12,307 nt of DNA from Sandaracinaceae bacterium. GTDB taxonomy: Bacteria > Myxococcota_A > Polyangia > Polyangiales > Sandaracinaceae. The position numbers were made by a program, and so were the translations under genes. Position 1 is the first letter of the stretch. Every line of letters begins with the position of its first letter. The stretch lies in the NCBI GenBank assembly GCA_044220955.1, contig JBGAQA010000146.1:1-12307 (forward strand), read 5' to 3'. This document shows positions 223 to 11,876 of the stretch, in pieces. The notes beneath the pieces were generated by a model. That model made no database searches. It was given only the letters and a program-made list of their open reading frames with translations, and had not been told where the DNA came from.

Positions 223-3200
223 TCAGCGCTCGAGGAGCCGTGCCAGCGCGGTGAGCTGCTCCGACGCGGGCGCGGTCTGCGCGACGACGTGCCCGGCCAG
301 CAGGATCGCGGCTCGCTCGCGGTGCACGGCCGTCCCCGCGGCGATCGCCAGCAGCTCGCTCCCGCCCGCCAGGGACAGAGCGCCGTCGATCATCGACGCG
401 AGCGGCTCCTGGCGCGAGGCCTGCACGACGACGCCGGCCTCTCGCCCGATCCGGTGCAGCACGGCGTGCGTCCGCTGCGCCAGCGGCTCGACGGGCCCGC
501 TCGAGCTCTTCGCGGGCCTGGCGCCGCGAAGCGGAGGGCGCTTCGACTCGCGCGCCTTGCCCGCCGGTGCCTTGGGGGTCTTGGCCGGCTTGCGCGACGC
601 GTCCGGCCGGGCGGTCTCGGGCCGGGCCGCGGTCTTCAGCCCGAGCGCGAGCGCGAGGGCGTCCGAGCGTGTGATGGCGCGCGGTCCGAGCGCGAGCGCG
701 AGCCGCTGCGAGGCGAGCGATCCATCGGCGACGAAGCGCGGGTAGCGCGCGAGCGCGTCGTCTTCGGCGCTCGCATCGAGCTCGTCGGGGTCGAGCACGA
801 CGACGGCGCTCTGCTTCGCGAGCACGTCGACGACGCCGCGCAGCGACCCGAGCGGACCGACGCCGAAGGGCATGGCCACGTCGGCCGGCAGCTCCTTGGC
901 GTGCACGAAGCCGAGGGTGGCGCCGCGCACGAGGTGAGCGCGGTCGAGGTCGACGTCGGGGCTCTCGTCCTTCGCCACGCGCGCCGCGATCATCCCGAGC
1001 AGCCGCACGTACGCGGTCCGCGCGATGGCGTCGAGCGCGCCCTCCGCCTCGCCTCGCGTCGCGCCCCAGACCACGAGCGTCCCCTCGAGCGGGACGACCT
1101 CGGGCAGGTGCTTGGGAGCGGTCGCGCGCAGCGGCGACGGGGGCGCGTTCTCGGGGTCGTCCGTCGCCGCGTCGAGCACCCGGACGCCGGCGTCCTGCGT
1201 CTCGTCGAGCGGCCCGAGCGAGAGCACGCCCCGCACGGCACGGGCTCTGGCGACGTAGAGCCCCGCGACGAATGGCCGGTCGATGGTGATCGTCGGGAAG
1301 GGCCCGCGTGGTGCGGGGAGCGATCGGAGCACGATCTCCTCGGCGAGCTCGATCGCGCCTCGCTCGATGGCGAGCCGCGCTTCGTCACGGACCGCCCCGC
1401 TCCAGGTGCGGTCGGGCGTCAGCGCGAGCGAGCTCGCACGCGCGCGGGTCGCCAGCTCACCCTCGAGCTCGATCTCGCCGAGCGGCTGCATCCCGAGAAA
1501 GAACGTGAGGCCGCGTGCGCTCGCGTGCGCGGGCCAGAGCACCATCACCACGGTCTCCGTGCCGTCGTCCTCGCGCTCCGTCTCGATGCCGAGCGCCATG
1601 TCGCGCTCCTCGTCGGTCGGCGCGATCGACGCCACGGGGGGACGCGACCGGTTCACCATCGCGACCTGGTCGAGCTCGAGCTCCTTCGTCGCGTCCACGA
1701 CCGGGATCGCGCGGCCGAGCGCCGCCGCGTGCGGCGGCGAGAGGCGCAGGGAGAAGCGCTCCGGATCCAGCGGCACGCGCCGCGTCTGCATCGGGGTCCA
1801 CCACACGGGGCCGAAGCGCTCGTGCTGCGTCCGGATCTCCTCGAAGGAGACGCGCGCTCCGGCCGTGGTCGGGAAGAGCTTCAGCGCCCCGAGGCGCTCG
1901 AGGTGGGTCCTGCCGCCGAGCAGCGCCGCGTCGCGCTGCGCGTCGAGCGCCCAGTCGGGTGCGCCGTCGAACGAGCGCTCGTCCGTCAGGCGCCGCAAGA
2001 GCCTGGCCAGGGCGCGCACGAGCGCAGGCTCGATCTCTTCGCGCGCCGGGCGGCCGGACGCGCCCTTCGCGACGAGGGGCGACTCGATCGCCGCCTCGAA
2101 GGGCGGGACCAGCTCGACGGAGATCTCCGAGACGACCTCGCCCGCGTCGAAGAAGCGCACGTGCGAAGGGCCGCGCTCGACGAGGCCGATCACGCCGTGG
2201 CCGAGCGCCTGCTCCACGACGGTCGCGTCGTCGGTGCTCGTGACCAGCGCGTCGAGGGTCCGGCAGAGGGCTGCCACGTGCCCGGGGCGCAGGGTCGGCG
2301 GCAGGGTGAGCCCTCGCGCCCGGCGCCGCGCCGTGTGGAGCGCGCGCACCTCGCGGGTGACGTCGCGAAGCGCCGCGCCGGCGATCTTCTCCAGGAGCGC
2401 GCTGCGCCCGTCGCCCGTGGGCCAGGGAACGAGCGCGATGGGCCGATCGAAGGGCCCAGCAGGCTCCCCGTCGGCGGGGGGCAGGAGCGTGAGCGGCTCG
2501 GGGAGGAACCACAGCTCGTCGTCGACGGTCGCGCTCGCGATCGAGAGCGCTTGACCCTGCACGGCCCGGAGCGTGGGCGGCGCGCAGAGGGCGCGGAGCA
2601 TCGCCCCGACCTCGCCGCGCCGGCGGCCTCCGCCGACCAGGTGCTCGGCCAGCGCGCGCAGCGCGGGGTCGCCGAAGAGCGATGCCCCGTTCTCGTTCAC
2701 CATGGCCACGAGCAGCGCGCGCGCCGACGCGTGGATGGCGCCGCGCGTGCGCGAGACGGCCGCCTCGCCCGGCTTCGTGCCGGTGTCGTCCACGAGGCGT
2801 GGCTCGATGGACACGCGCGAGACCACGTGGGGCGGCAGGTCGTCCGCCTCGAGGTCGACGAAGGGACGCCGGTCGACGAGCAGCTCGACGCGCGGCCTCG
2901 AGACGTGGGCGCGGAACCCGAGCACGCCGTCGATGCCATCGCCCGTCACCCGCGCCGTCGCGCTCGCGCCCCGCACCTCGAGCGGCTCGGGCGCGCGCGC
3001 CGCGATGGCGGCCAGGCGTGCCTCGCGCCGGCGCGCGGCGAGCGTGCCGCGGATGGCGTCCGTGGCATCGACCACCTCGCGCGTGCCCGCGAGCGCCGCG
3101 AGCCCGAGGGCCTCCTCGCGGCTCCCGCGGAGCACGTCGAGCGCGAGCCCGTCCAGCTCGCGCGCGGCGAACGCGTCGCGCGGCACGAACGCGATCGCCC

Positions 3201-5805
3201 CCTCGTTGGACGCGCGGATGGCCGCGATGCTCGTGCGCTCGCTGCCGAGCCCCGGGAACAGGCGCAGCTCGGCGAGGGCCGCTCGCTCGTCCGTGTCGAG
3301 GGGCTCCTCGAAAGGCGCGCGCGCCTCGAGCATGACGGCGCGGACCACCGAGGGGGCGTCGAGCTCGATCCCCCGGACCAGGTCGTCGGAGACCGAGCCG
3401 AGCCAGGCTCGCAGCGCCGCGCGCGCGATCCGGCTCGACGCGCGATCGAGCGCGTGCCGCTGCTCGAGCGCGATCCAGTCCACGCTGGCGCTGCTCCACG
3501 CCTCGTCGGGCACGATGCGCTCGTCCTCGACGAGCGCGAGGACGGGGACGCGCGCCGAGCGCAGCCCGTGCATGCCCATGCGCACGCCCATGTGCTGGGC
3601 GACGATGCCCCCGTCGTCGTCGCACCAGGCGACGACCCTCGCGAAACCGTCACCGTCCGTCGCGAGCCCGAGCTTCGCTCCGCGCGCGAGGGCCTGCACC
3701 GTGAGGTCCGCCGCCTTCGCGGGTGGCCGTCGCACGCGCGCGTAGTCGACGAAGTGTGCGCGCGGCAGCAGCAATCGCAGCGCCGTTCGCTCGGCGTCGT
3801 CGACGACGAGCACCGGACGATGGGCGGGCAGCGCCTCCGGCCAAGGTCGGCCCTTCTCGACCAGGCCGATCGCGTCGGCGGCAGCCAGCGCGTCGATCGA
3901 CGTCGTGCCGCCGATGCAGGTCCAGGCCGGGGCCGCTCCGAGGGGCTTGCCGAGCACGTGGCGTCGCGCGTCGTCGACGTCGGCCGCGATCGACGCGAGC
4001 AGGGCGTGGCGGACCAGGGCCCGCGCGCGCGGGTCGGACGCCACCTGCGCCGGCTCGACCGAGAGCGTCCCGTCCCTGGTCTTCTCGCCGCAGAGGATCC
4101 GCGCGACGCTCGTGCATCCGGCGAGGATCGCTCGCTCGACCGCCTCGAGCACGGCCCGGCTGACGTCGTCGTCGAGCGCCGCATCGTAGCTCGTGGTCGG
4201 CGTGAGCGCGGCACAGTCGGCGACGACGGCGATGCCGACGCCGGCCCGGCTTCGTCGCGTCTCGAGCAGTCGCCCGCCGACGCGCAGCTCGATCGTCCGG
4301 TCCTCGCCCGGCGCGCCGAGCACCACGTCTCCCGCGAGCGCGAAGTGGGGGCGGCCCTTCTGGCCGAGCTGCTGCGGGAGCGGGATGCGGGCGATCGCCC
4401 CGTCCGCTCGCTGCACACGCGGAGGCTCCACCGGGCGGGCGAGCCAGCGTCGCTCGTTCTCCTGCGTCCGCGCCGCGAGCTCGACGAGCGGCGCCGCCGA
4501 CGCGGGCGCATGATCGCCGAAGAGCAGGTGCGTGGGATCGCCGGCGGGGGCCGCGAGCACGTCGCCGAGCCAGGGCGCCAGCTCCTTCGCCACGTACGTC
4601 GCCCCGTAGTGCACCTGTGCGTGGCTCGCGCCGGCGAGCTCGCGGGGGCTTCGGGCCCGGCCCGTCGCGTCGATCAGCAGCCTCGCGTCGAGCAGCGGCA
4701 CGAGCGCGGGCGAGACCGCCGCGATCGCGAGCCGCGTCCGGAACGCGACGCCGCCCACCTCCGAAGCGAGCAGCGTCATCGCGATCGTCCGCAGCCACGA
4801 GCGGCGAGCGGGCTCCTGCGCCGTCCCGATCTCGGCGGCGAGGCGCTGGACGAGCGCCGTCAGCGCGGCGCCGGCCTGCGAGAGCGCCTCGGCGGCGTCG
4901 GGCTCGTCCCAGCGCACCGCCGAGCGTGCCGCGTTCGTGGGCAGCCGCTCGCGGTCGACGCGCAGGAGCACGGGCACGTTCGCCCCCGCAGCGCCGACAC
5001 CGCAAGACCAGGGCTCGCGCGAGAGGACGACGCCGGCCTCGGCGGCCTCGAGGATCGCGTGGGTCCTGCCGATCCGCGGGGTGACGAGCGCGACGTAGCC
5101 GCCGCTCGCGAGTGGCTCGCGCATCACGATCGCGGGATCTTGCGCGACGGGGAGCCCCCCCACCGTCAGCGGTACGCGCACCTCGCGCGTGGCGTCGCGC
5201 ACGAGCGCCAGCTCGCGCGGCTCCTCGCCGACCGCCCAGCGGGCGAGCGCACCGAGGCCCATGACGGCCCGCGCGTGGACGAGCACGCCCCGGCGTGGGC
5301 GCGGCGCGTGCGCGGGGGGCGCGGCGCGCTCGGTCGTCAGCGCCCTCAGGCCCGGAGCGATCCCGGTCTCGCGCTCCACGCTGAAGAGCTGGGGCGTGAA
5401 GCGCACGCGCTCGCTGCCCTCCGCGTCCAGCGCGTACACGTCCACGTGGCGCGTCGCCGTGCCGTCCTCCTTGCGTCCGAGGGCGGCGTTCACGCCGATC
5501 GCGAGCAGGCGCCACGCCCGCGCGTCGGGCGCGGCGGAGGGATCGAAGAGCTCCTCGAAGAGCCGGGGGAGCTTCGCGGGGTCGGGCTTCGCACACGCGA
5601 TCGCGACGAAGACGTCGCCGCCGCTGCCCTCGACGGCGATCGCCTCGGTCTCGCGCATCAGCACGCCGGCGCGGACCACCTCGAGCACCCAGCCGAGCGG
5701 ATCGGCGAGCTGGTAGCTGCGCAGCTTGTCGATCGCGCGGGCGGCGTCCACGCGCAGGCGCCCGCCCGAGACACGGATCCCGGCGCCGGGACGCGCGCGG
5801 CTCAT
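223..5805 (-). CDS. Giant (1860 aa) HSP90-related protein: degenerate GHKL N-domain plus tandem HSP90 middle-domain-like repeats
   Basis: This is the C-terminal part of ORF 223..7263, with the start reassigned to ATG 5805 (MSRARPGAG...). That ATG overlaps the upstream TGA (ATGA), and the translation changes from Arg-rich junk to normal composition there. The N-terminus LRVDAARAIDKLRSYQLADPLGWVLEVVRAG resembles the HtpG start (F.VD...I.LL....Y..P..F.RELxQNA). Sequence motifs recur about every 220-250 aa. The gene call is confident; the domain assignment is by eye. Confidence 0.85.
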   Translation of the reverse strand: MSRARPGAGIRVSGGRLRVDAARAIDKLRSYQLADPLGWVLEVVRAGVLMRETEAIAVEGSGGDVFVAIACAKPDPAKLPRLFEELFDPSAAPDARAWRLLAIGVNAALGRKEDGTATRHVDVYALDAEGSERVRFTPQLFSVERETGIAPGLRALTTERAAPPAHAPRPRRGVLVHARAVMGLGALARWAVGEEPRELALVRDATREVRVPLTVGGLPVAQDPAIVMREPLASGGYVALVTPRIGRTHAILEAAEAGVVLSREPWSCGVGAAGANVPVLLRVDRERLPTNAARSAVRWDEPDAAEALSQAGAALTALVQRLAAEIGTAQEPARRSWLRTIAMTLLASEVGGVAFRTRLAIAAVSPALVPLLDARLLIDATGRARSPRELAGASHAQVHYGATYVAKELAPWLGDVLAAPAGDPTHLLFGDHAPASAAPLVELAARTQENERRWLARPVEPPRVQRADGAIARIPLPQQLGQKGRPHFALAGDVVLGAPGEDRTIELRVGGRLLETRRSRAGVGIAVVADCAALTPTTSYDAALDDDVSRAVLEAVERAILAGCTSVARILCGEKTRDGTLSVEPAQVASDPRARALVRHALLASIAADVDDARRHVLGKPLGAAPAWTCIGGTTSIDALAAADAIGLVEKGRPWPEALPAHRPVLVVDDAERTALRLLLPRAHFVDYARVRRPPAKAADLTVQALARGAKLGLATDGDGFARVVAWCDDDGGIVAQHMGVRMGMHGLRSARVPVLALVEDERIVPDEAWSSASVDWIALEQRHALDRASSRIARAALRAWLGSVSDDLVRGIELDAPSVVRAVMLEARAPFEEPLDTDERAALAELRLFPGLGSERTSIAAIRASNEGAIAFVPRDAFAARELDGLALDVLRGSREEALGLAALAGTREVVDATDAIRGTLAARRREARLAAIAARAPEPLEVRGASATARVTGDGIDGVLGFRAHVSRPRVELLVDRRPFVDLEADDLPPHVVSRVSIEPRLVDDTGTKPGEAAVSRTRGAIHASARALLVAMVNENGASLFGDPALRALAEHLVGGGRRRGEVGAMLRALCAPPTLRAVQGQALSIASATVDDELWFLPEPLTLLPPADGEPAGPFDRPIALVPWPTGDGRSALLEKIAGAALRDVTREVRALHTARRRARGLTLPPTLRPGHVAALCRTLDALVTSTDDATVVEQALGHGVIGLVERGPSHVRFFDAGEVVSEISVELVPPFEAAIESPLVAKGASGRPAREEIEPALVRALARLLRRLTDERSFDGAPDWALDAQRDAALLGGRTHLERLGALKLFPTTAGARVSFEEIRTQHERFGPVWWTPMQTRRVPLDPERFSLRLSPPHAAALGRAIPVVDATKELELDQVAMVNRSRPPVASIAPTDEERDMALGIETEREDDGTETVVMVLWPAHASARGLTFFLGMQPLGEIELEGELATRARASSLALTPDRTWSGAVRDEARLAIERGAIELAEEIVLRSLPAPRGPFPTITIDRPFVAGLYVARARAVRGVLSLGPLDETQDAGVRVLDAATDDPENAPPSPLRATAPKHLPEVVPLEGTLVVWGATRGEAEGALDAIARTAYVRLLGMIAARVAKDESPDVDLDRAHLVRGATLGFVHAKELPADVAMPFGVGPLGSLRGVVDVLAKQSAVVVLDPDELDASAEDDALARYPRFVADGSLASQRLALALGPRAITRSDALALALGLKTAARPETARPDASRKPAKTPKAPAGKARESKRPPLRGARPAKSSSGPVEPLAQRTHAVLHRIGREAGVVVQASRQEPLASMIDGALSLAGGSELLAIAAGTAVHRERAAILLAGHVVAQTAPASEQLTALARLLER

Positions 5806-7523
5806 CGCGCGCCCCCGCCGAAGAGGGACCGCAGGCTGGCGTCTGCGAGCGCGAGCGAGCGCGCCTCGGTCACGAGCTCCCGATCGGCGAGGACGGCGCG
5901 GGCCAGCACGTCGGCGGCGACGACGGGGTCCGGGTGCGCGCGCGCCGCCATGACGACGGGATGTCCAGCCGCGATGCCGAGCGGGGGCCGGAGGGCGATG
6001 CGGAAGGGGTCGGCTTCGTCGTCGCGGGCGCTGGCGAGGTGCGCGCGATCGACGTGCGCGAGCGTGAACGTGAGCCGAGTGTCGGCGCCGACGACGTCGA
6101 CGAGGTGCACGCTCGAGGGCGCTCGCAGCACGACGCCGAGCAGCCGCGTGAGCTGAGCGAGCAGGTGGGCATCGGCCTCGCTCGTTCGCCCCGCGTCGAG
6201 CGGTACGAGCGCGGAGCCCAGGTAGCGCGGGTGGACGGGGCGGGTCCCCGTGAACGCCGCGAGCAGCGACTCCAGCGTCTCCTTCTCCGCAGCATCGCGC
6301 GCGAGGCTCGCGTCGATCACGGGCACGCCCGCCGCGGCGAGGACGTCCACGAGCGCGTCGCGCTCGCGGGCCATGCGCGAGGGCCCGCTCCCGCCGAGGC
6401 ACGGCAGCACGCGGGCGCCGCCGACCGGGGCGAGCAGCGGGACGTCGATCCGGCGCGGATCGATCGCGAGCTCGGCGCGTCGCGCGGCGTCCACGATGCC
6501 GATCCAGCGTGAGCCGGCGGTGGCGTCGCCGGCCACGTGCGCGCGCGCGGCCTGGCCGATCTCCGAGAGCACCTCCTGCGTGAGCGGGACGGAGATGGCG
6601 TGCTCGACGAGGCGGAGCGCGCGCGCGTGCGCGTCGTCCATGCGCACGTCCTCCCGCGAGAGCGTGTGGGACAGGCGGGGGTCCGAGACCTTGAACGCGA
6701 TCGACGCGCGCGTGCCGCGATCGCGGGAGGCGTGCAAGAGCAGCCCGCGGTTGTAGAAGGCGGCGAGACGGGCGGTCTCGGGCACGAGCCCGACGAGCGC
6801 GCTCGTCTCGTCGTCGTAGGAGACGGCACGCACGCTGACCAGCGCCTGGTCGAGATCGATCGGCCGGTCGATGCGCTGCTGCACGGACGGCGTGGCCTCG
6901 CTCGCCGGGACCACGTTGAAATGGATGGGAACGCTCGCGTGCCCGCACCAGCGCTCGAGCGCGGCCTGGCTCCGAGCGACGAGCTCCGCGCCATCGTCCT
7001 TCAGCGGGACGTGGAGCGTCACGGTCGTCCCGCGGGTACCACCCGGCTCGCGATAGAGGTCGTAGCTCCGGTCCGGGTGCAAGTGCAGCACGTGGCGCAC
7101 GTCGTCGCCGACGCAGGTGGAGACCACCACGAGCGAGGGAGCGAGGGCCAGGACCGAGACGAAGCCGATCCCGAACTTGCCGATCGTGTCGCCGCGGTCC
7201 TCCTTCGTGGAACGAAAGAGCACGACGAGATCCTCCTCGAGCACCTGCTGCGTCATCCCGCAACCGTCGTCCGTCACGCTGAGGCGCGCCTCGTGGGCGT
7301 CGTCCGCACGCGTGATCACGATGCGCACGTGGATCTCGCTGCTCCCGGCGTCGATCGCGTTCTGAGCGAGCTCGCGGAAGAGGGCGTAGGGGTCGGCGAA
7401 CTGGCGGACCAGGTCGCCGACGAGGCCATCGTTCTCGCTCGTCTCGGCCTCGGCGCGGCCCGCGCGGTAGGGGCCCGCGTCCGGCACGCCGTTCTCCTTC
7501 TTGCTCTTGTCCTTCTTGCTCAC
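5802..7523 (-). CDS. HSP90/HtpG-like GHKL ATPase (573 aa), divergent compact paralog
   Basis: GTG start at 7523 overlaps the upstream TGA (GTGA). All GHKL boxes are present: RELAQNAIDA (ExxxN), DDGCGM (DxGxG), IGKFGIGF and GTTVTL. The middle-domain motif DPRLSHTLSREDV matches HSP90 DLPLNxSRE, and the C-terminal LGIAAGHPVV resembles LEINPxHPxI. Confidence 0.92.
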   Translation of the reverse strand: MSKKDKSKKENGVPDAGPYRAGRAEAETSENDGLVGDLVRQFADPYALFRELAQNAIDAGSSEIHVRIVITRADDAHEARLSVTDDGCGMTQQVLEEDLVVLFRSTKEDRGDTIGKFGIGFVSVLALAPSLVVVSTCVGDDVRHVLHLHPDRSYDLYREPGGTRGTTVTLHVPLKDDGAELVARSQAALERWCGHASVPIHFNVVPASEATPSVQQRIDRPIDLDQALVSVRAVSYDDETSALVGLVPETARLAAFYNRGLLLHASRDRGTRASIAFKVSDPRLSHTLSREDVRMDDAHARALRLVEHAISVPLTQEVLSEIGQAARAHVAGDATAGSRWIGIVDAARRAELAIDPRRIDVPLLAPVGGARVLPCLGGSGPSRMARERDALVDVLAAAGVPVIDASLARDAAEKETLESLLAAFTGTRPVHPRYLGSALVPLDAGRTSEADAHLLAQLTRLLGVVLRAPSSVHLVDVVGADTRLTFTLAHVDRAHLASARDDEADPFRIALRPPLGIAAGHPVVMAARAHPDPVVAADVLARAVLADRELVTEARSLALADASLRSLFGGGAR

Positions 7524-8443
7524 GCGGCCATCCGATCGATCTCCCGGAGCGCCGCCGCCGTCTCCTCCGGCGCCACGAGGCAGATCGAGGAGCCCGTGTG
7601 CAGCTCGAACCCGGCGTCGCCGCCCGTCCTCGGGAGGATCTCGATCGAGAAGAACGTACCGCGCGTCGCGAGCGCCGGATCGCGGATCAGCACGTTGTAG
7701 TCGGCCAGGCCCATCCGCGCCCGGAGGCAGCGCAGAGCCCGCCCGAGGTGGTCGGCCAGCGCGCTCACCCCCGCGTCCTCGAGCTCCGCGAGCCGCTCGA
7801 CCCGCTCGACGGGCGCGATGCGCACCTCGTGGGCGCGCGCCGACGCGAACGGACAGAACGTGACGAACCCACCGCCCTCGCGCACGACGCGGCCTCCTGC
7901 GCGCTCGGCCTCGAGCGTGCGCGCGAGCAGACCCGGATCGGCCAGTGCGATGGCGTCGCGCGTACGGACGTGCGGGGGGACGTAGTCGAGCGCGGTGATC
8001 TGCGCGTGTGGATGAGGCTGCGAGCTTCCGGCGCGCCGCCCGCGGTTCCGGAAGGTGACGACGCACCCGATCCCCTCGAGCGCCGCGAGCGTGCGGGCGC
8101 GATCGCGGTACGTCGAGAGCACGTCGGTGAGCGAGCGCGCGTCGAGATCCGGCAGGTCGACGTCGTGCGCGCGCGACTCGATCACCACCTCGTGGACGCC
8201 CCGGGCGCCCGCCATCGACATCGACACGAGCGGGAAGCGATTGCCGACGACGCGCACCGACCAGGGGTCGCCGATCGCGGCGACGGTCGCCTCCGCGTCC
8301 GCCTCGTGGCCTGGGCAGAAGGGACAGCGCCCCGCCGGGGCCGGCAGGCCGCCGGCCTTGGTGGCCCCGATCGCGAGCCGCCCCGGGGCCAGGACGACCT
8401 CGGCGCCCGACCATGGATCGACGCGCACCTCGCTCGACGTCAT
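7520..8443 (-). CDS. galT: GalT-like (HIT superfamily) nucleotidyltransferase, 307 aa
   Basis: ATG at 8443 overlaps the nosL stop. Motifs: RVDPWSG..V..APGR, CPFCPGHE (Zn), VRVVGNRFP, GVHEVVIES..H, FRNRG..AGSSQPHPHAQ (HxHxQ catalytic motif) and C-terminal AGFELHTG....V.PE.AA..LR. The family is clear; the substrate is uncertain. Confidence 0.88.
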   Translation of the reverse strand: MTSSEVRVDPWSGAEVVLAPGRLAIGATKAGGLPAPAGRCPFCPGHEADAEATVAAIGDPWSVRVVGNRFPLVSMSMAGARGVHEVVIESRAHDVDLPDLDARSLTDVLSTYRDRARTLAALEGIGCVVTFRNRGRRAGSSQPHPHAQITALDYVPPHVRTRDAIALADPGLLARTLEAERAGGRVVREGGGFVTFCPFASARAHEVRIAPVERVERLAELEDAGVSALADHLGRALRCLRARMGLADYNVLIRDPALATRGTFFSIEILPRTGGDAGFELHTGSSICLVAPEETAAALREIDRMAA

Positions 8444-8865
8444 CGCGCGAAGAACGATCGCACGAGCTCGGGCGTGATCTCGGAGAAAGGGCGCACGGTT
8501 CCCCGATGGTCGCGCGCGAATCGCTCGGCGTCGGCGCGCGACCCCAGCGAGACGAGGTCCGGGCCCATGGGGCCCGACACGTCCGAGCCGGTGACGAAGA
8601 ACGCGCTCTCGAGCGCGACGTGCGTGCGCGCGTAGTAGTCGGTGACCCACGCGCCCGTGGCCGTGGAGTGCTCCAGTCGATAGCGCAAGAGGCACTTGTT
8701 GGAGTCGAACGCGATCGTCCGCCCGTCGAGGGTCGCCCCGCTCGTGAACGCGCCCGCCGGGTCGACGCGCATGCCGCAGTGCTCGCAGCGCGTCGACTGC
8801 GCCTCGACCGAGCACGCGACGAGCAGGAGGAGACCGAGCGCGAGCGGCGCGATGCGATCAGGCAT
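8440..8865 (-). CDS. nosL: NosL-family (nitrous oxide reductase accessory-like) Cu-binding lipoprotein, 141 aa
   Basis: Signal peptide with lipobox LVAC, then CEHCGM (CxxCGM), FDSNKC, WVTDYY, AFFVTGSDVSGPMG and AERFARDHRG. These are characteristic NosL motifs. Confidence 0.92.
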   Translation of the reverse strand: MPDRIAPLALGLLLLVACSVEAQSTRCEHCGMRVDPAGAFTSGATLDGRTIAFDSNKCLLRYRLEHSTATGAWVTDYYARTHVALESAFFVTGSDVSGPMGPDLVSLGSRADAERFARDHRGTVRPFSEITPELVRSFFAR

Positions 8866-9466: not shown

Positions 9467-10492
9467 TTGCTCGACAACCTCTTCCGACCCTGGCTCCTCG
9501 CGCTCGTCTTGCCCGAGCTCGTCGCGGCGGTGCTCGCCGTCGTCGCGATGGCCTCGGCCCTGCGCGTGCTCTCGCTCGGAGGCGCGCCGCGGACGAGCGA
9601 GCTCGCGCTGGCGATCGAGCGGCGCGCGGAGCTGGTCGCCACCCTCTTCGGCGTCGCGTCGATGGCGACGCTCGTGGCGCTCGTGGTGGAGGTGCTGGGC
9701 GCCGACCGGCTGCGGGCGTCCGTGCGCGGCGCGATGTGCGCCTGGGGCGTGCTCGCGCAAGCGGCGTGGGGCTTCCGCTCGCTGGGGCTCGCGCTGGCGT
9801 GCGCGCTGGCGTGCGCGGCCTGGCTCGGGCTGCACCGGGTCGACCTGGCGCTGCGCACGCCGGAGCTGACGCGCGTGAAGTTCGTCGCGGTGCTCCTGGT
9901 CGCTCCGCTCGTGATCGCGAACCTGGGCGCAGGGCTGCTCTACGCGCTGGGGCTCGACTTCCGCGTCGTCGCCTCCTGTTGTTCGACGGGGCTCGAGGGC
10001 GCGCGCGACGCGGTGCTCGGCGCCAGCGGCGGCGCGCGCACGTCCGCGTTCGCGGCGTTCGCCGGGCTCGGCGCGCTGAGCGCCTCCCTGGCGCTGGTCG
10101 CGCGACGGAGCGGCTCCGTGCGGCTCGGAGGCCTCGCGGCGCTCGCTTCCGGCCTCGCCGCCATCGCCGCCGCGCCCGCGATCCTCGGCTACGTGGCGCC
10201 CTACGCGTACGAGTCGCCCGCGCATCTCTGCCCCTTCTGCCTGCTCGACGACGACGGCCACCACATCGGCTGGCCGCTCTACGCCGCGCTCTACGCCGCC
10301 GTCTCGCTCGGCCTCGCGGCCGGCGTCGGCGCCCTCGCTGCCACCCGCGTTCGCGAGCGCGACGCAGCGTGGTCGGTGACCTCGCGCTCGCTCGGGCGCA
10401 TGGCCGCCGCCTGGGCGCTCGCGCTCGCGGTGGCGCTCTATCCGATCGTGCGCTTCACGATCCTGACGAACGGCGCTCCGCTCTTCGGGTGA
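9467..10492 (+). CDS. Polytopic membrane protein with Cys/His motifs, putative metal-binding (341 aa)
   Basis: TTG start 5 nt after the upstream TAG; roughly 8 hydrophobic segments. Motifs GAMCAWG (9728-9748), SCCS (9974-9985) and YESPAHLCPFCLL (HLCPFC at 10223-10240). Strong GC3 bias in this frame. Confidence 0.85.
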   Translation: MLDNLFRPWLLALVLPELVAAVLAVVAMASALRVLSLGGAPRTSELALAIERRAELVATLFGVASMATLVALVVEVLGADRLRASVRGAMCAWGVLAQAAWGFRSLGLALACALACAAWLGLHRVDLALRTPELTRVKFVAVLLVAPLVIANLGAGLLYALGLDFRVVASCCSTGLEGARDAVLGASGGARTSAFAAFAGLGALSASLALVARRSGSVRLGGLAALASGLAAIAAAPAILGYVAPYAYESPAHLCPFCLLDDDGHHIGWPLYAALYAAVSLGLAAGVGALAATRVRERDAAWSVTSRSLGRMAAAWALALAVALYPIVRFTILTNGAPLFG

Positions 10493-10548: not shown

Positions 10549-10923
10549 ATGTACAGCATCTCGGTCCGCGCTCCGGGCGCGTTCGTCGATCCGTTCACCC
10601 GTGCCACCTATGCGCTCGTCGATGCCTACGCGCGGGACGGTCACATCCCGCGCCCCGACCCGGCGTACTTCGTCGGCGACGCGAGCGCGATCGTCCTGGC
10701 GAGCGACGCGCTGCTCGCCATCGGCACACCCGCGTGGGAGCGCTGCGACGCGCCGCTCGTCTGCGGCGCGCTCGAGGCCGCCGCGCTCGAGGAGCTCGCG
10801 AGCGAGCTCGCGGCGGTCGCCGCCGAGAGACGGGCCTCGGCACCGGCCGCCCGCGCGAGCCGCCGCCGGGTCGCGCACCTCGCGCGGCGCGGGCGACGAC
10901 GCCCTCGCGCACTCGGGAGGTGA
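10549..10923 (+). CDS. Hypothetical protein (124 aa)
   Basis: GGAGG at 10540-10544 precedes ATG 10549 (MYSISVRAPGAFVDPF...). Composition is normal for about 95 aa, then an Arg-rich tail. It fills the gap between two confident genes. Confidence 0.6.
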   Translation: MYSISVRAPGAFVDPFTRATYALVDAYARDGHIPRPDPAYFVGDASAIVLASDALLAIGTPAWERCDAPLVCGALEAAALEELASELAAVAAERRASAPAARASRRRVAHLARRGRRRPRALGR

Positions 10924-10955
10924 CAGTCGCCGCGCTGCGCGCGAGGATGCGCGCG

Positions 10956-11876
10956 ATGAGGGCTCCGGATCGTGCGGACGTGCTCGTGGTGGGTGGCGGC
11001 CCGGCCGGCCTCTCGGCGGCGCTGCTCCTCGCGCGCGGGTGCAAGAGCGTCATCCTGTGTGACGCGGGGACGCCGCGGAACGCGCGCTCGACGGGGGTAC
11101 ACGGCTACCTCGGCTGCGACGCCGTGCTGCCGAGCGAGCTGCGGGCGCGCGGGCAGGCCGAGCTCGCGCGCTACCCGTCCGTCTCGCAGTTGTCTGCGCG
11201 CGTCGTCGGGATCGAGCGCCGCGGAGCCGACCTCGTCGCCACGCTCTCGCCCGGTGGGGAGGTGAGCGTCCGGCGCGTGCTGCTCGCGACCGGGATCGTG
11301 GACGCGCTCCCGAAGACGCCCGGATTCGCCGAGCAGTGGGGCAGGGGCGTCTTCGACTGCCCGTACTGCCACGGCTACGAGCACAGGGGCGAGCCCTGGG
11401 GCTTCGTCGCGCCGAAGGTCGCCGGCCTTCGTGCCGTCCTCTCCTACCTGGCCTGGACGCGCGACATGATCGTGTTCACGGACGGGTTCGCGCTCGACGT
11501 CCCGGCCGACCTGAAGCGCGAGCTCGACGTTGCGCGCGTGCGCTTCGAGCCGCGCAAGATCTTGCGCGTCGTCGCGGAAGGGGAGCGCCTGACCGGTCTC
11601 GAGGTCGAGGGGGGTGACGTCGTCGCGCGCGGCGCCCTCGTCTATCACCCCGCGGCGCGTCCGAGCGATCTCGCGCTGATGCTCGGCCTCGCGCAAGACG
11701 GCGGCTACGTCCGCGTCGAGCCGCGCACCCGGGAGACCAGCATGCGCGGAGTGTACGCGGGCGGAGATCTCGCGGCGGGTGGGATGAAGGCGCTCCTCTC
11801 GGCCGCGGACGGGATGGTCGCCGCGCAGTCCATCACCGAGGCGCTCACGCTCGAGGATGCCCTCTCGGCTCGCTGA
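10956..11876 (+). CDS. NAD(P)/FAD-dependent oxidoreductase, thioredoxin-reductase-like (GliT/dithiol-oxidase-type CPYC), ~306 aa
   Basis: DVLVVGGGPAGLSAA (FAD Rossmann motif), PRN....HGYLG, LLATG..D.LP..PG, FDCPYCHGYE (CPYC at 11358-11369), ETS..GVYAGGD. The start is uncertain: ATG 10956 (GAGG 9 nt upstream), ATG 10947, or GTG 10920 overlapping the upstream stop. Confidence 0.92.
   Translation: MRAPDRADVLVVGGGPAGLSAALLLARGCKSVILCDAGTPRNARSTGVHGYLGCDAVLPSELRARGQAELARYPSVSQLSARVVGIERRGADLVATLSPGGEVSVRRVLLATGIVDALPKTPGFAEQWGRGVFDCPYCHGYEHRGEPWGFVAPKVAGLRAVLSYLAWTRDMIVFTDGFALDVPADLKRELDVARVRFEPRKILRVVAEGERLTGLEVEGGDVVARGALVYHPAARPSDLALMLGLAQDGGYVRVEPRTRETSMRGVYAGGDLAAGGMKALLSAADGMVAAQSITEALTLEDALSAR

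Follow-up and report, generated by a model that had tools for sequence, protein, structure and literature searches.

A myxobacterial gene pair of a compact, active-looking Hsp90-type ATPase and a giant, apparently ATP-dead relative with stacked middle domains

In a 12,307-nucleotide stretch of DNA from a Sandaracinaceae bacterium (contig JBGAQA010000146.1, assembly GCA_044220955.1; hereafter the window), we analyzed two adjoining genes, U and G. Judged by their sequences, they appear to form a myxobacterial pair of a compact, active-looking Hsp90-type ATPase and a giant, ATP-dead relative with stacked middle domains. G derives from a copy of U, has lost the ATP pocket and has multiplied the middle domain about seven times between retained N- and C-terminal domains. 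As a whole, U and G are best explained as the unlike halves of a single Hsp90-type machine, a reading to which we give a probability of about 0.5.

5802..7523, minus strand: gene U, 573 amino acids, a compact Hsp90-like protein with GHKL ATPase N-domain, single middle domain and C-domain
223..5805, minus strand: gene G, 1860 amino acids, predicted giant ATP-dead paralog of U, placed by its open reading frame and the overlap with U

The start codon of G and the stop codon of U overlap by four nucleotides, with U upstream. Across 43 loci the spacing between both genes was -4 in 36, -1 in three and -8 in two, i.e., 41 of 43 pairs overlapped. U moreover preceded G in 69 of 75 named loci from Sandaracinaceae, Polyangiaceae (including Sorangium cellulosum So ce56, L113), Kofleriaceae and Haliangiales, the remaining six being without upstream sequence. 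We conclude that U and G are translationally coupled and travel together. Among 61 related genomes, 19 carried G and 20 carried U, i.e., the same genomes plus G047, whose G turned up in a wider profile search; both tallies include genome G026, on which none of the other results depends. Database names are 'ATP-binding protein' or 'HtpG' for U and 'hypothetical protein' for G, for which Pfam, PADLOC and PHROGs offered no family and NCBIfam a single row at chance-level score. A 1955-amino-acid open frame on the plus strand, antisense to G (289-6156), was rejected as a shadow because the guanine-cytosine content by codon position, 0.87-0.97 at third positions, assigns coding to the G frame.

U contains Pfam HATPase_c with an E-value of 1.8e-10, and the best solved relatives of its ATPase domain were Hsp90 N-domains. 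In profile comparisons it matched HtpG at 99.6% over 481 columns spanning N-, middle and C-domains; the isolated middle and C-terminal pieces matched at 4.9% and 49%, respectively. The GHKL motifs ExxxN, DxGxG, GxxGxG and GT (E51, N55, D85, G87, G89, G115, G118, G120) were invariant or nearly so in 68/68 U sequences, as was the catalytic-loop Arg290, present in 68/68. Scores of U against the HtpG model NF003555 (43.1 bits, cut-off 371) and the HSP90 family protein model NF010683/PRK14083 (50.2 bits, cut-off 455) were low, and the Pfam scan gave no PF00183 match.

We divided G into the following domains, given from the N- to the C-terminus, with the repeat units numbered R1 to R7 and model quality as predicted local distance difference test (pLDDT).

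5143..5805, minus strand: degenerate GHKL N-domain, residues 1-221; profile match to the U N-domain 97.5%
4420..5142, minus strand: R1, residues 222-462, probable middle domain with retained catalytic loop; profile match 86-92% to the U and 44-69% to the HtpG middle domain
3700..4398, minus strand: R2, residues 470-702, complete Hsp90 middle-domain fold in the model; pLDDT 90.5, Z 9.4-10.8
2986..3690, minus strand: R3, residues 706-940; shared strand and helix order, profile match 92-98% to R1, R2, R4, R5 and R6
2272..2973, minus strand: R4, residues 945-1178, complete middle-domain fold in the model; Z 7.8-7.9 to Hsp90 over about 200 residues
1612..2223, minus strand: R5, residues 1195-1398; modelled element order, profile match 96-98% to R2, R3 and R4
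1306..1605, minus strand: R6, residues 1401-1500, limited to the first half of a unit, with S5-like sheet, loop and long helix; pLDDT 89.6, Z 7.5-9.7 to GHKL transducer domains
640..1299, minus strand: R7, residues 1503-1722, degenerate, with altered sheet, long helix and small α/β subdomain; placed by element order, the weakest assignment
499..639, minus strand: Lys/Pro-rich flexible linker, residues 1723-1769; low pLDDT, secondary structure absent
226..498, minus strand: Hsp90-like C-terminal domain, residues 1770-1860; weak fold match plus profile match to the U C-domain

Residues 32-331 of G aligned to U at 98.4% in profile comparison, and G is therefore a paralog of U. Its N-domain keeps the N-terminal strand, helix 1 and Glu42. 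The Mg-binding Asn of the ATP site, four places after Glu42, occurred in none of 154 near G homologs and none of 30 distant G-type proteins (0/184), and the DxGxG and Gly-rich lid motifs are replaced. Following GHKL chemistry, the loss of this Asn, of DxGxG and of the lid glycines predicts that G cannot bind ATP, i.e., G should be ATP-dead. The direct profile match between the N-domains of G and HtpG was just 1.6%, so that the link from G to HtpG at this end goes via U. In the ESM Atlas, the nearest feature clusters of G residues 1-330 (window 5805-4816) were unnamed 255-364-amino-acid proteins, commonest in Vulcanimicrobiota, in clusters of 958, 176 and 104 members with scores of 0.97-0.98, which measure feature similarity and not alignment. 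These clusters may stand for a wide proliferation of this dead N-domain, not accompanied by long arrays of repeats.

U lacks the N-terminal β-strand of HtpG, i.e., the swap strand. The hydrophobic anchor of this strand, 25 places before the catalytic Glu, was found in 29/29 HtpG, 149/154 near G and 30/30 distant G proteins, and in 10/120, 8/53 and 4/18 members of three U sets, of which the first two overlap. The pocket Asn was present in all U and HtpG proteins and in no G. By these residue counts, the losses look complementary: U has the pocket and no strand, G has the strand and no pocket. In Hsp90, the first strand swaps between protomers on closure and the C-domain is the standing dimer contact, according to the accessible part of PMC9138868. 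An obligate U-G heterodimer is suggested because U lost the swap strand that G kept. We regard as rather probable a U-G heterodimer that is held together at its two ends, in which U alone turns over ATP and the surplus G units arch outwards to give a chamber or docking arc.

U might instead be an ordinary homodimeric Hsp90-like ATPase, and G a separate co-chaperone or client-delivery scaffold that self-dimerizes via its C-domain and contacts U transiently. U owns N-, middle and C-domains, gene coupling implies a shared function and not a fixed heterodimer, and the C-domains of U and G have strongly diverged (59% profile match). Such an arrangement leaves unexplained why the swap strand is missing in U and best conserved in G; moreover, the dead N-domain, needless for a mere scaffold, is kept even in short G forms. 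We consider it unlikely.

The repeats of G had been proposed in the initial annotation from three recurring motif classes, (a), (b) and (c). All 13 quoted motifs that we searched for lay in one frame, within about 30 nucleotides of their proposed places, i.e., class (a) at G residues 287, 533, 763 and 1461, class (b) at 371, 622, 844, 1073 and 1305, and class (c) at 685, 911, 1146 and 1369. Internal periodicity was seen at one of two levels: self-alignment of the single sequence was near chance, and family profiles revealed repeats of about 235 amino acids. On the single sequence, sliding windows over G reached Z 2.6 at best, and among 28 unit pairs only R5-R6 stood out at Z 6.1, the R6-R7 score being an overlap artefact. 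For a blind test, we sliced a 31-sequence G family alignment into 240-residue tiles and compared them profile to profile, with reversed controls. Tiles matched at offsets of 222-256, 452-485, 667-714, 926-934 and 1174-1182, i.e., at multiples of about 235 residues, with probabilities of up to 97.7% versus at most 2.5% in the reversed controls. Residues 1-240 matched later tiles at no more than 1.2%, i.e., the repeats do not include the ATPase module. Profiles of R1 to R6 from 47 sequences aligned in register in 15/15 pairs, of which 14 scored 74-98% and R5-R6 25% (reversed, at most 2.9%). With 154 sequences, a non-redundant subset of 170, the R5-R6 match rose to 66%, and R7 matched the other units at 10% or less. 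A pooled unit model recognized five stretches in G; 20 shuffles and the reversed sequence yielded no match. As proposed earlier, repetition is not visible in the DNA, where we found no repeat family with a period of about 700 nucleotides in G.

At the sequence level, a chain of evidence connects the units with Hsp90, from HtpG to U (99.6%), from U to R1 (86-92%) and from R1 to the other units. Direct profile scores of R2 to R7 against HtpG were 7.6% or lower, none of 29 HtpG proteins reached 10 bits with the pooled unit model, and a sequence search of solved structures with the repeat profile gave no hits. The suggested likeness of motif (a) to an HSP90 loop was reproduced for R1, where the motif aligned with the HtpG DLPLNVSRE loop. 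That of motif (b) to HtpG was recovered in part, in weak R2, R3, R5 and R7 hits around the motif that landed on the HtpG segment named before. Among the units, R1 alone retains the catalytic-loop Arg; at this place the consensus of R2, R3 and R6 is Tyr or Trp.

We modelled residues 463-1400 (pLDDT 90.5, predicted template modelling score (pTM) 0.50) and 1401-1860 (pLDDT 89.6, pTM 0.71) with AlphaFold. The first model contains four successive runs of a five-stranded meander, hairpin loop, long helix, further helices, hairpin and small α/β subdomain; the second contains the half unit R6 and the degenerate R7, followed by the flexible linker and then the small C-domain. No ATPase domain was present in the units of either model. 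Motif (a) forms the modelled hairpin loop joining the sheet to the long helix, motif (b) the hairpin plus helix opening the small subdomain, and motif (c) the strand and helix that close the unit. Against 48,161 chains, searched independently of Foldseek, R2 best matched the middle domains of GRP94 (Z 10.0), HtpG (Z 9.8) and TRAP1 (Z 9.4) at ranks 1-3, over 190-193 residues at root mean square deviations of 4.1-4.7, as the proposed kinship with the HSP90 middle domain leads one to expect. Hsp90s made up seven of the first eight rows, and the best non-GHKL row had Z 5.4. R4 spanned the whole Hsp90 middle domain (Z 7.8-7.9), and R6 matched its first half in HtpG and GRP94 (Z 7.5) as well as MORC3 (Z 9.7). 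Foldseek returned, for both models, Hsp90-family chains only among the matches listed. The models thus support the modelled units of G as Hsp90 middle domains by fold, R3 and R5 being supported as such through shared topology and profile homology. Phage RIIA proteins were the next viral matches after viral Hsp90 for the 463-1400 model (window 4419-1606; Foldseek E 1.4e-3 to 2e-2, low template modelling (TM) scores).

The six to seven tandem HSP90 middle domains of the initial annotation are hence to be read as five complete units followed by R6, a half unit only, and a degenerate R7. It is equally fair to count six units with an inserted half, because one fold alignment merges the R6 half and the small subdomain of R7 into a single middle domain. 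The middle-domain units were correctly recognized in the earlier architecture, which was incomplete in that neither the dead N-domain and the C-domain of G nor its active partner, gene U, formed part of it.

The first half of the units fits MORC3 as well as Hsp90 (Z 9.3-9.7), and S5 folds contact DNA in MutL and topoisomerases (general knowledge; accessible part of preprint 10.64898/2026.09.30.754977), which would suit a nucleic-acid clamp of the MORC/MutL type that grips DNA with repeated S5-like transducer domains. MORC, MutL and topoisomerases covered only the first about 105 residues of R2, however, whereas whole units matched Hsp90 over twice the length and the second subdomain was matched by Hsp90 rows only. 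Moreover, U aligns with HtpG end to end, and neither the 75 loci nor 20 regions from distant relatives showed a conserved partner of methylase, helicase or nuclease type. A DNA clamp is the least probable of the explanations we considered.

The last 91 residues of G matched Hsp90 C-domains at Z 5.4-6.1 and minigluzincin folds at Z 6.3-6.8. The HExxH motif is absent from the G C-domain sequence despite this minigluzincin fold match. Foldseek top rows for the C-terminal region were all Hsp90 middle plus C-domains, and the profile of the domain matched the U C-domain at 59% and the HtpG C-domain at 23% (reversed, 0.3%).

Near G homologs were mostly 1630-1990 amino acids long, and 116 of 164 that we scanned showed the full order N-R1...R7-C, many others being incomplete. 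Seven short G forms among the 164 (690-1464 amino acids; assembly errors possible) kept both ends and dropped units, leaving 1-4. At L047, L050, L056, L065, L073, L074 and L088, G is split across at least two frames, by sequencing error or real decay. The tightly kept length of near homologs, together with units that lack the catalytic Arg and a sub-branch where an AAA+ ATPase and a coiled-coil protein accompany the pair, could fit a structural rod or spacer, e.g., a molecular ruler or a polar or cytoskeletal scaffold. Unit number would determine its length, and U would merely load or release it. G appears to retain both Hsp90 dimer ends, which favors a clamp over a filament, and forms of 1-4 units occur; we regard a rod as very improbable.

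The G family comprises 349 protein clusters (50% identity, E up to 1e-30), and a profile of N-domain plus R1 found matches in 69 of 301 genomes of the phylum, with up to six per genome. From weaker profile matches we drew 20 distant regions, choosing tandem and long ones. U lay beside G in 17 of them, two ended at contig edges and one (L189) showed no U. Two or three G genes accompanied a single U in 5/20 regions (L176, L177, L178, L179 and L180), and in L180 and L190 the order is reversed, with G-type genes ahead of U. The 30 distant G-type proteins measured 744-2953 amino acids; the pooled unit model found 1-11 stretches in 24 of them and none in six. An 829-amino-acid G-type protein (L182:656-3142) carries a WD40 propeller at its far end instead of the C-domain. 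Region L183 (3233-6055, 11701-14935) has a 941-amino-acid repeat-unit protein without N-domain after G, and AAA+, 346-amino-acid and coiled-coil genes before U. Relatives of this AAA+ gene, upstream of U, were found in 10/301 genomes, all ten G-positive, and not in G000 or the same-order genomes searched; two more small genes recur ahead of U in L183, L184, L191, L193 and L194. Since the AAA+ gene was not found in G000, the accessory genes belong to a sub-branch outside the lineage of the window.

Variable arms of this kind could also belong to an immunity or conflict sensor, in which G detects invader proteins and triggers U to act on an unlinked effector. Distant families have up to six G-type matches per genome, lengths of 744-2953 amino acids and one WD40 end, their presence is patchy (69/301 genomes), and GHL ATPases act in defence, as stated in the accessible part of the Tiamat preprint (10.64898/2026.09.30.754977). 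Against this, family scans found no effector domain in G or in 29/30 distant G proteins, and no nuclease or effector families in G parts or conserved neighbors, although a diverged or unlinked effector could escape such scans. The 100 neighbors in the 20 distant regions belonged mainly to metabolic, transport and signalling families, and PADLOC matches touched only the U ATPase domain. Moreover, 116/164 near homologs are single-copy with fixed unit order, and flanks are common within lineages. Overall, neither the G family scans nor the 75 loci and the 20 distant regions revealed a client, an effector or a defence context for the pair, and we consider a role as immune sensor improbable.

Returning to a single Hsp90-type machine of two unequal halves, U and G would assemble as a 1:1 heterodimer. 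Contact would be made at the C-domains, in the manner of Hsp90 dimers, and at the N-domains by G supplying U with its missing β-strand. ATP would be bound and split by U alone. Glu42 is conserved in 152/154 and Arg294 of R1 in 154/154 near G proteins, and this pair could dock the G N-domain on R1, so that G resembles a subunit held poised for closure; in Hsp90, Arg380 bridges Glu33 (PMC9138868, accessible part). With a single middle domain in one arm against six to seven in the opposite arm, the surplus units would have to bulge outwards, and may form a large loop or arc that makes the lumen much wider or provides an extended multivalent surface for docking. Through its ATP cycle, U would then open and close the clamp to hold, mature or dismantle a very large protein or complex, and lineages with several G per U could swap arms of differing length and surface, with G setting specificity. 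That the target is very large is suggested more weakly. Megasynthases may be one candidate client by analogy only, as HtpG stabilises megasynthases (10.1101/2025.07.01.662645, accessible part); we found nothing linking the U-G pair to megasynthase genes.

Several observations speak against this machine. In L189, G has no nearby U, and two regions are cut by contig ends. The pair is not the general Hsp90 of its host, because a normal HtpG is retained there. Of ten G-positive genomes that were also searched for HtpG, seven have it. In the 75 loci, no chaperone, synthase or other third gene was conserved beside the pair by crude gene calling. The Glu-Arg pair is not general, since distant G proteins have the Glu in 21/30 and the Arg in about 6/30. 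The placement of units relative to each other is uncertain in the model (pTM 0.50). The G C-domain is only weakly Hsp90-like, tied with metalloprotease-like folds, and U could pair with itself. Finally, the strand comparison uses an ungapped register only, and near U proteins carry a conserved Tyr-Arg motif further upstream as a possible substitute for the strand.

If the heterodimer holds, U and G may, as a tentative extension, represent a distinct Hsp90 class, i.e., obligate heterodimers of one motor and interchangeable ATP-dead arms, joined by a donated β-strand and the C-domains. The size of the looped-out chamber or arc would depend on how many middle domains are present, about 1 to 11, and giant clients would be selected accordingly. 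In some lineages, an AAA+ ATPase and a coiled-coil protein would complete a larger remodelling pathway.

In the window, U and G end a four-gene coupled run that begins with two further genes, neither of which is conserved beside U in the 75 related loci.

8440-8865, minus strand: NosL-like gene, overlapping the GalT-like gene by four nucleotides
7520-8443, minus strand: GalT-like gene, overlapping U by four nucleotides

Near the NosL-like gene, 9467-10492 (plus strand) encodes a 341-amino-acid membrane protein that carries several Cys/His motifs and gave no match in Pfam or NCBIfam. A thioredoxin-reductase-like flavoprotein is encoded at 10920-11876 (plus strand).

Among known systems, we compared the pair with Hsp90s, sacsin and Tiamat, the MORC/MutL/topoisomerase group and phage RIIA. 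The literature searched in full text, which mostly does not extend to subscription papers, so that a mention in print is possible, did not describe the U-G architecture. The accessible text of the Tiamat preprint (10.64898/2026.09.30.754977) does not contain 'myxo', and its supplements could list such proteins. The family is large and unannotated, and has a cultured, sequenced member host in Sorangium cellulosum So ce56 (L113).

Sacsin and Tiamat/NO VEIN are likewise giant proteins with Hsp90-like modules. U has a sub-cut-off SACS match (29.6 versus 32.8 bits) and weak TmtA matches on its ATPase domain. Sacsin repeats the ATPase plus flank, whereas G repeats the middle domain only, behind a single dead ATPase. 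Multiple ATPase repetitions are mentioned in the accessible part of the Tiamat preprint (10.64898/2026.09.30.754977), where Tiamat is given TPR-like and other kinds of middle fold together with a terminal nuclease, unlike what we saw in G. MORC, MutL and type II topoisomerase B subunits share the S5-like first half of the G units (Z 5-9.7); they differ in lacking the second middle subdomain, in having one transducer per chain and in acting on DNA. Eukaryotic MutL forms paralog heterodimers. Phage T4 RIIA-like proteins resemble the pair in a GHKL ATPase adjoining a partner gene and in matches to the U N-domain and the repeat model (Foldseek E 1e-3 to 1e-2), but these matches are weak and partial. 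Viral contigs gave 164 matches to the patterns used, none of which was a relative of G.

The closest likeness is with the Hsp90 family (HtpG, TRAP1, GRP94, Hsp82/Hsp90), seen in the N-M-C order, GHKL motifs and catalytic-loop Arg of U, the middle-domain fold of the G units and the C-domain-like ends. Known Hsp90s pair as homodimers that have one middle domain per chain and two sites for ATP (PMC9138868, accessible part; general knowledge), whereas here two unlike genes are involved. Hsp90 is generally treated in this way, as a homodimer with two ATP sites per machine, and a natural single-active-site pair, if true, permits a direct test of the need for a second ATPase in the cycle. This question has so far been probed with engineered heterodimers. 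Tandem middle domains would moreover mean that a client-binding domain is usable as a repeat module, and a natural series of one to about eleven units lets lumen size be compared with client size. Since G fails on the ATP site and on the single middle domain, and U scores far below the HtpG cut-offs, we propose that the U-G pair is an Hsp90-derived variant and not a plain member of the family.

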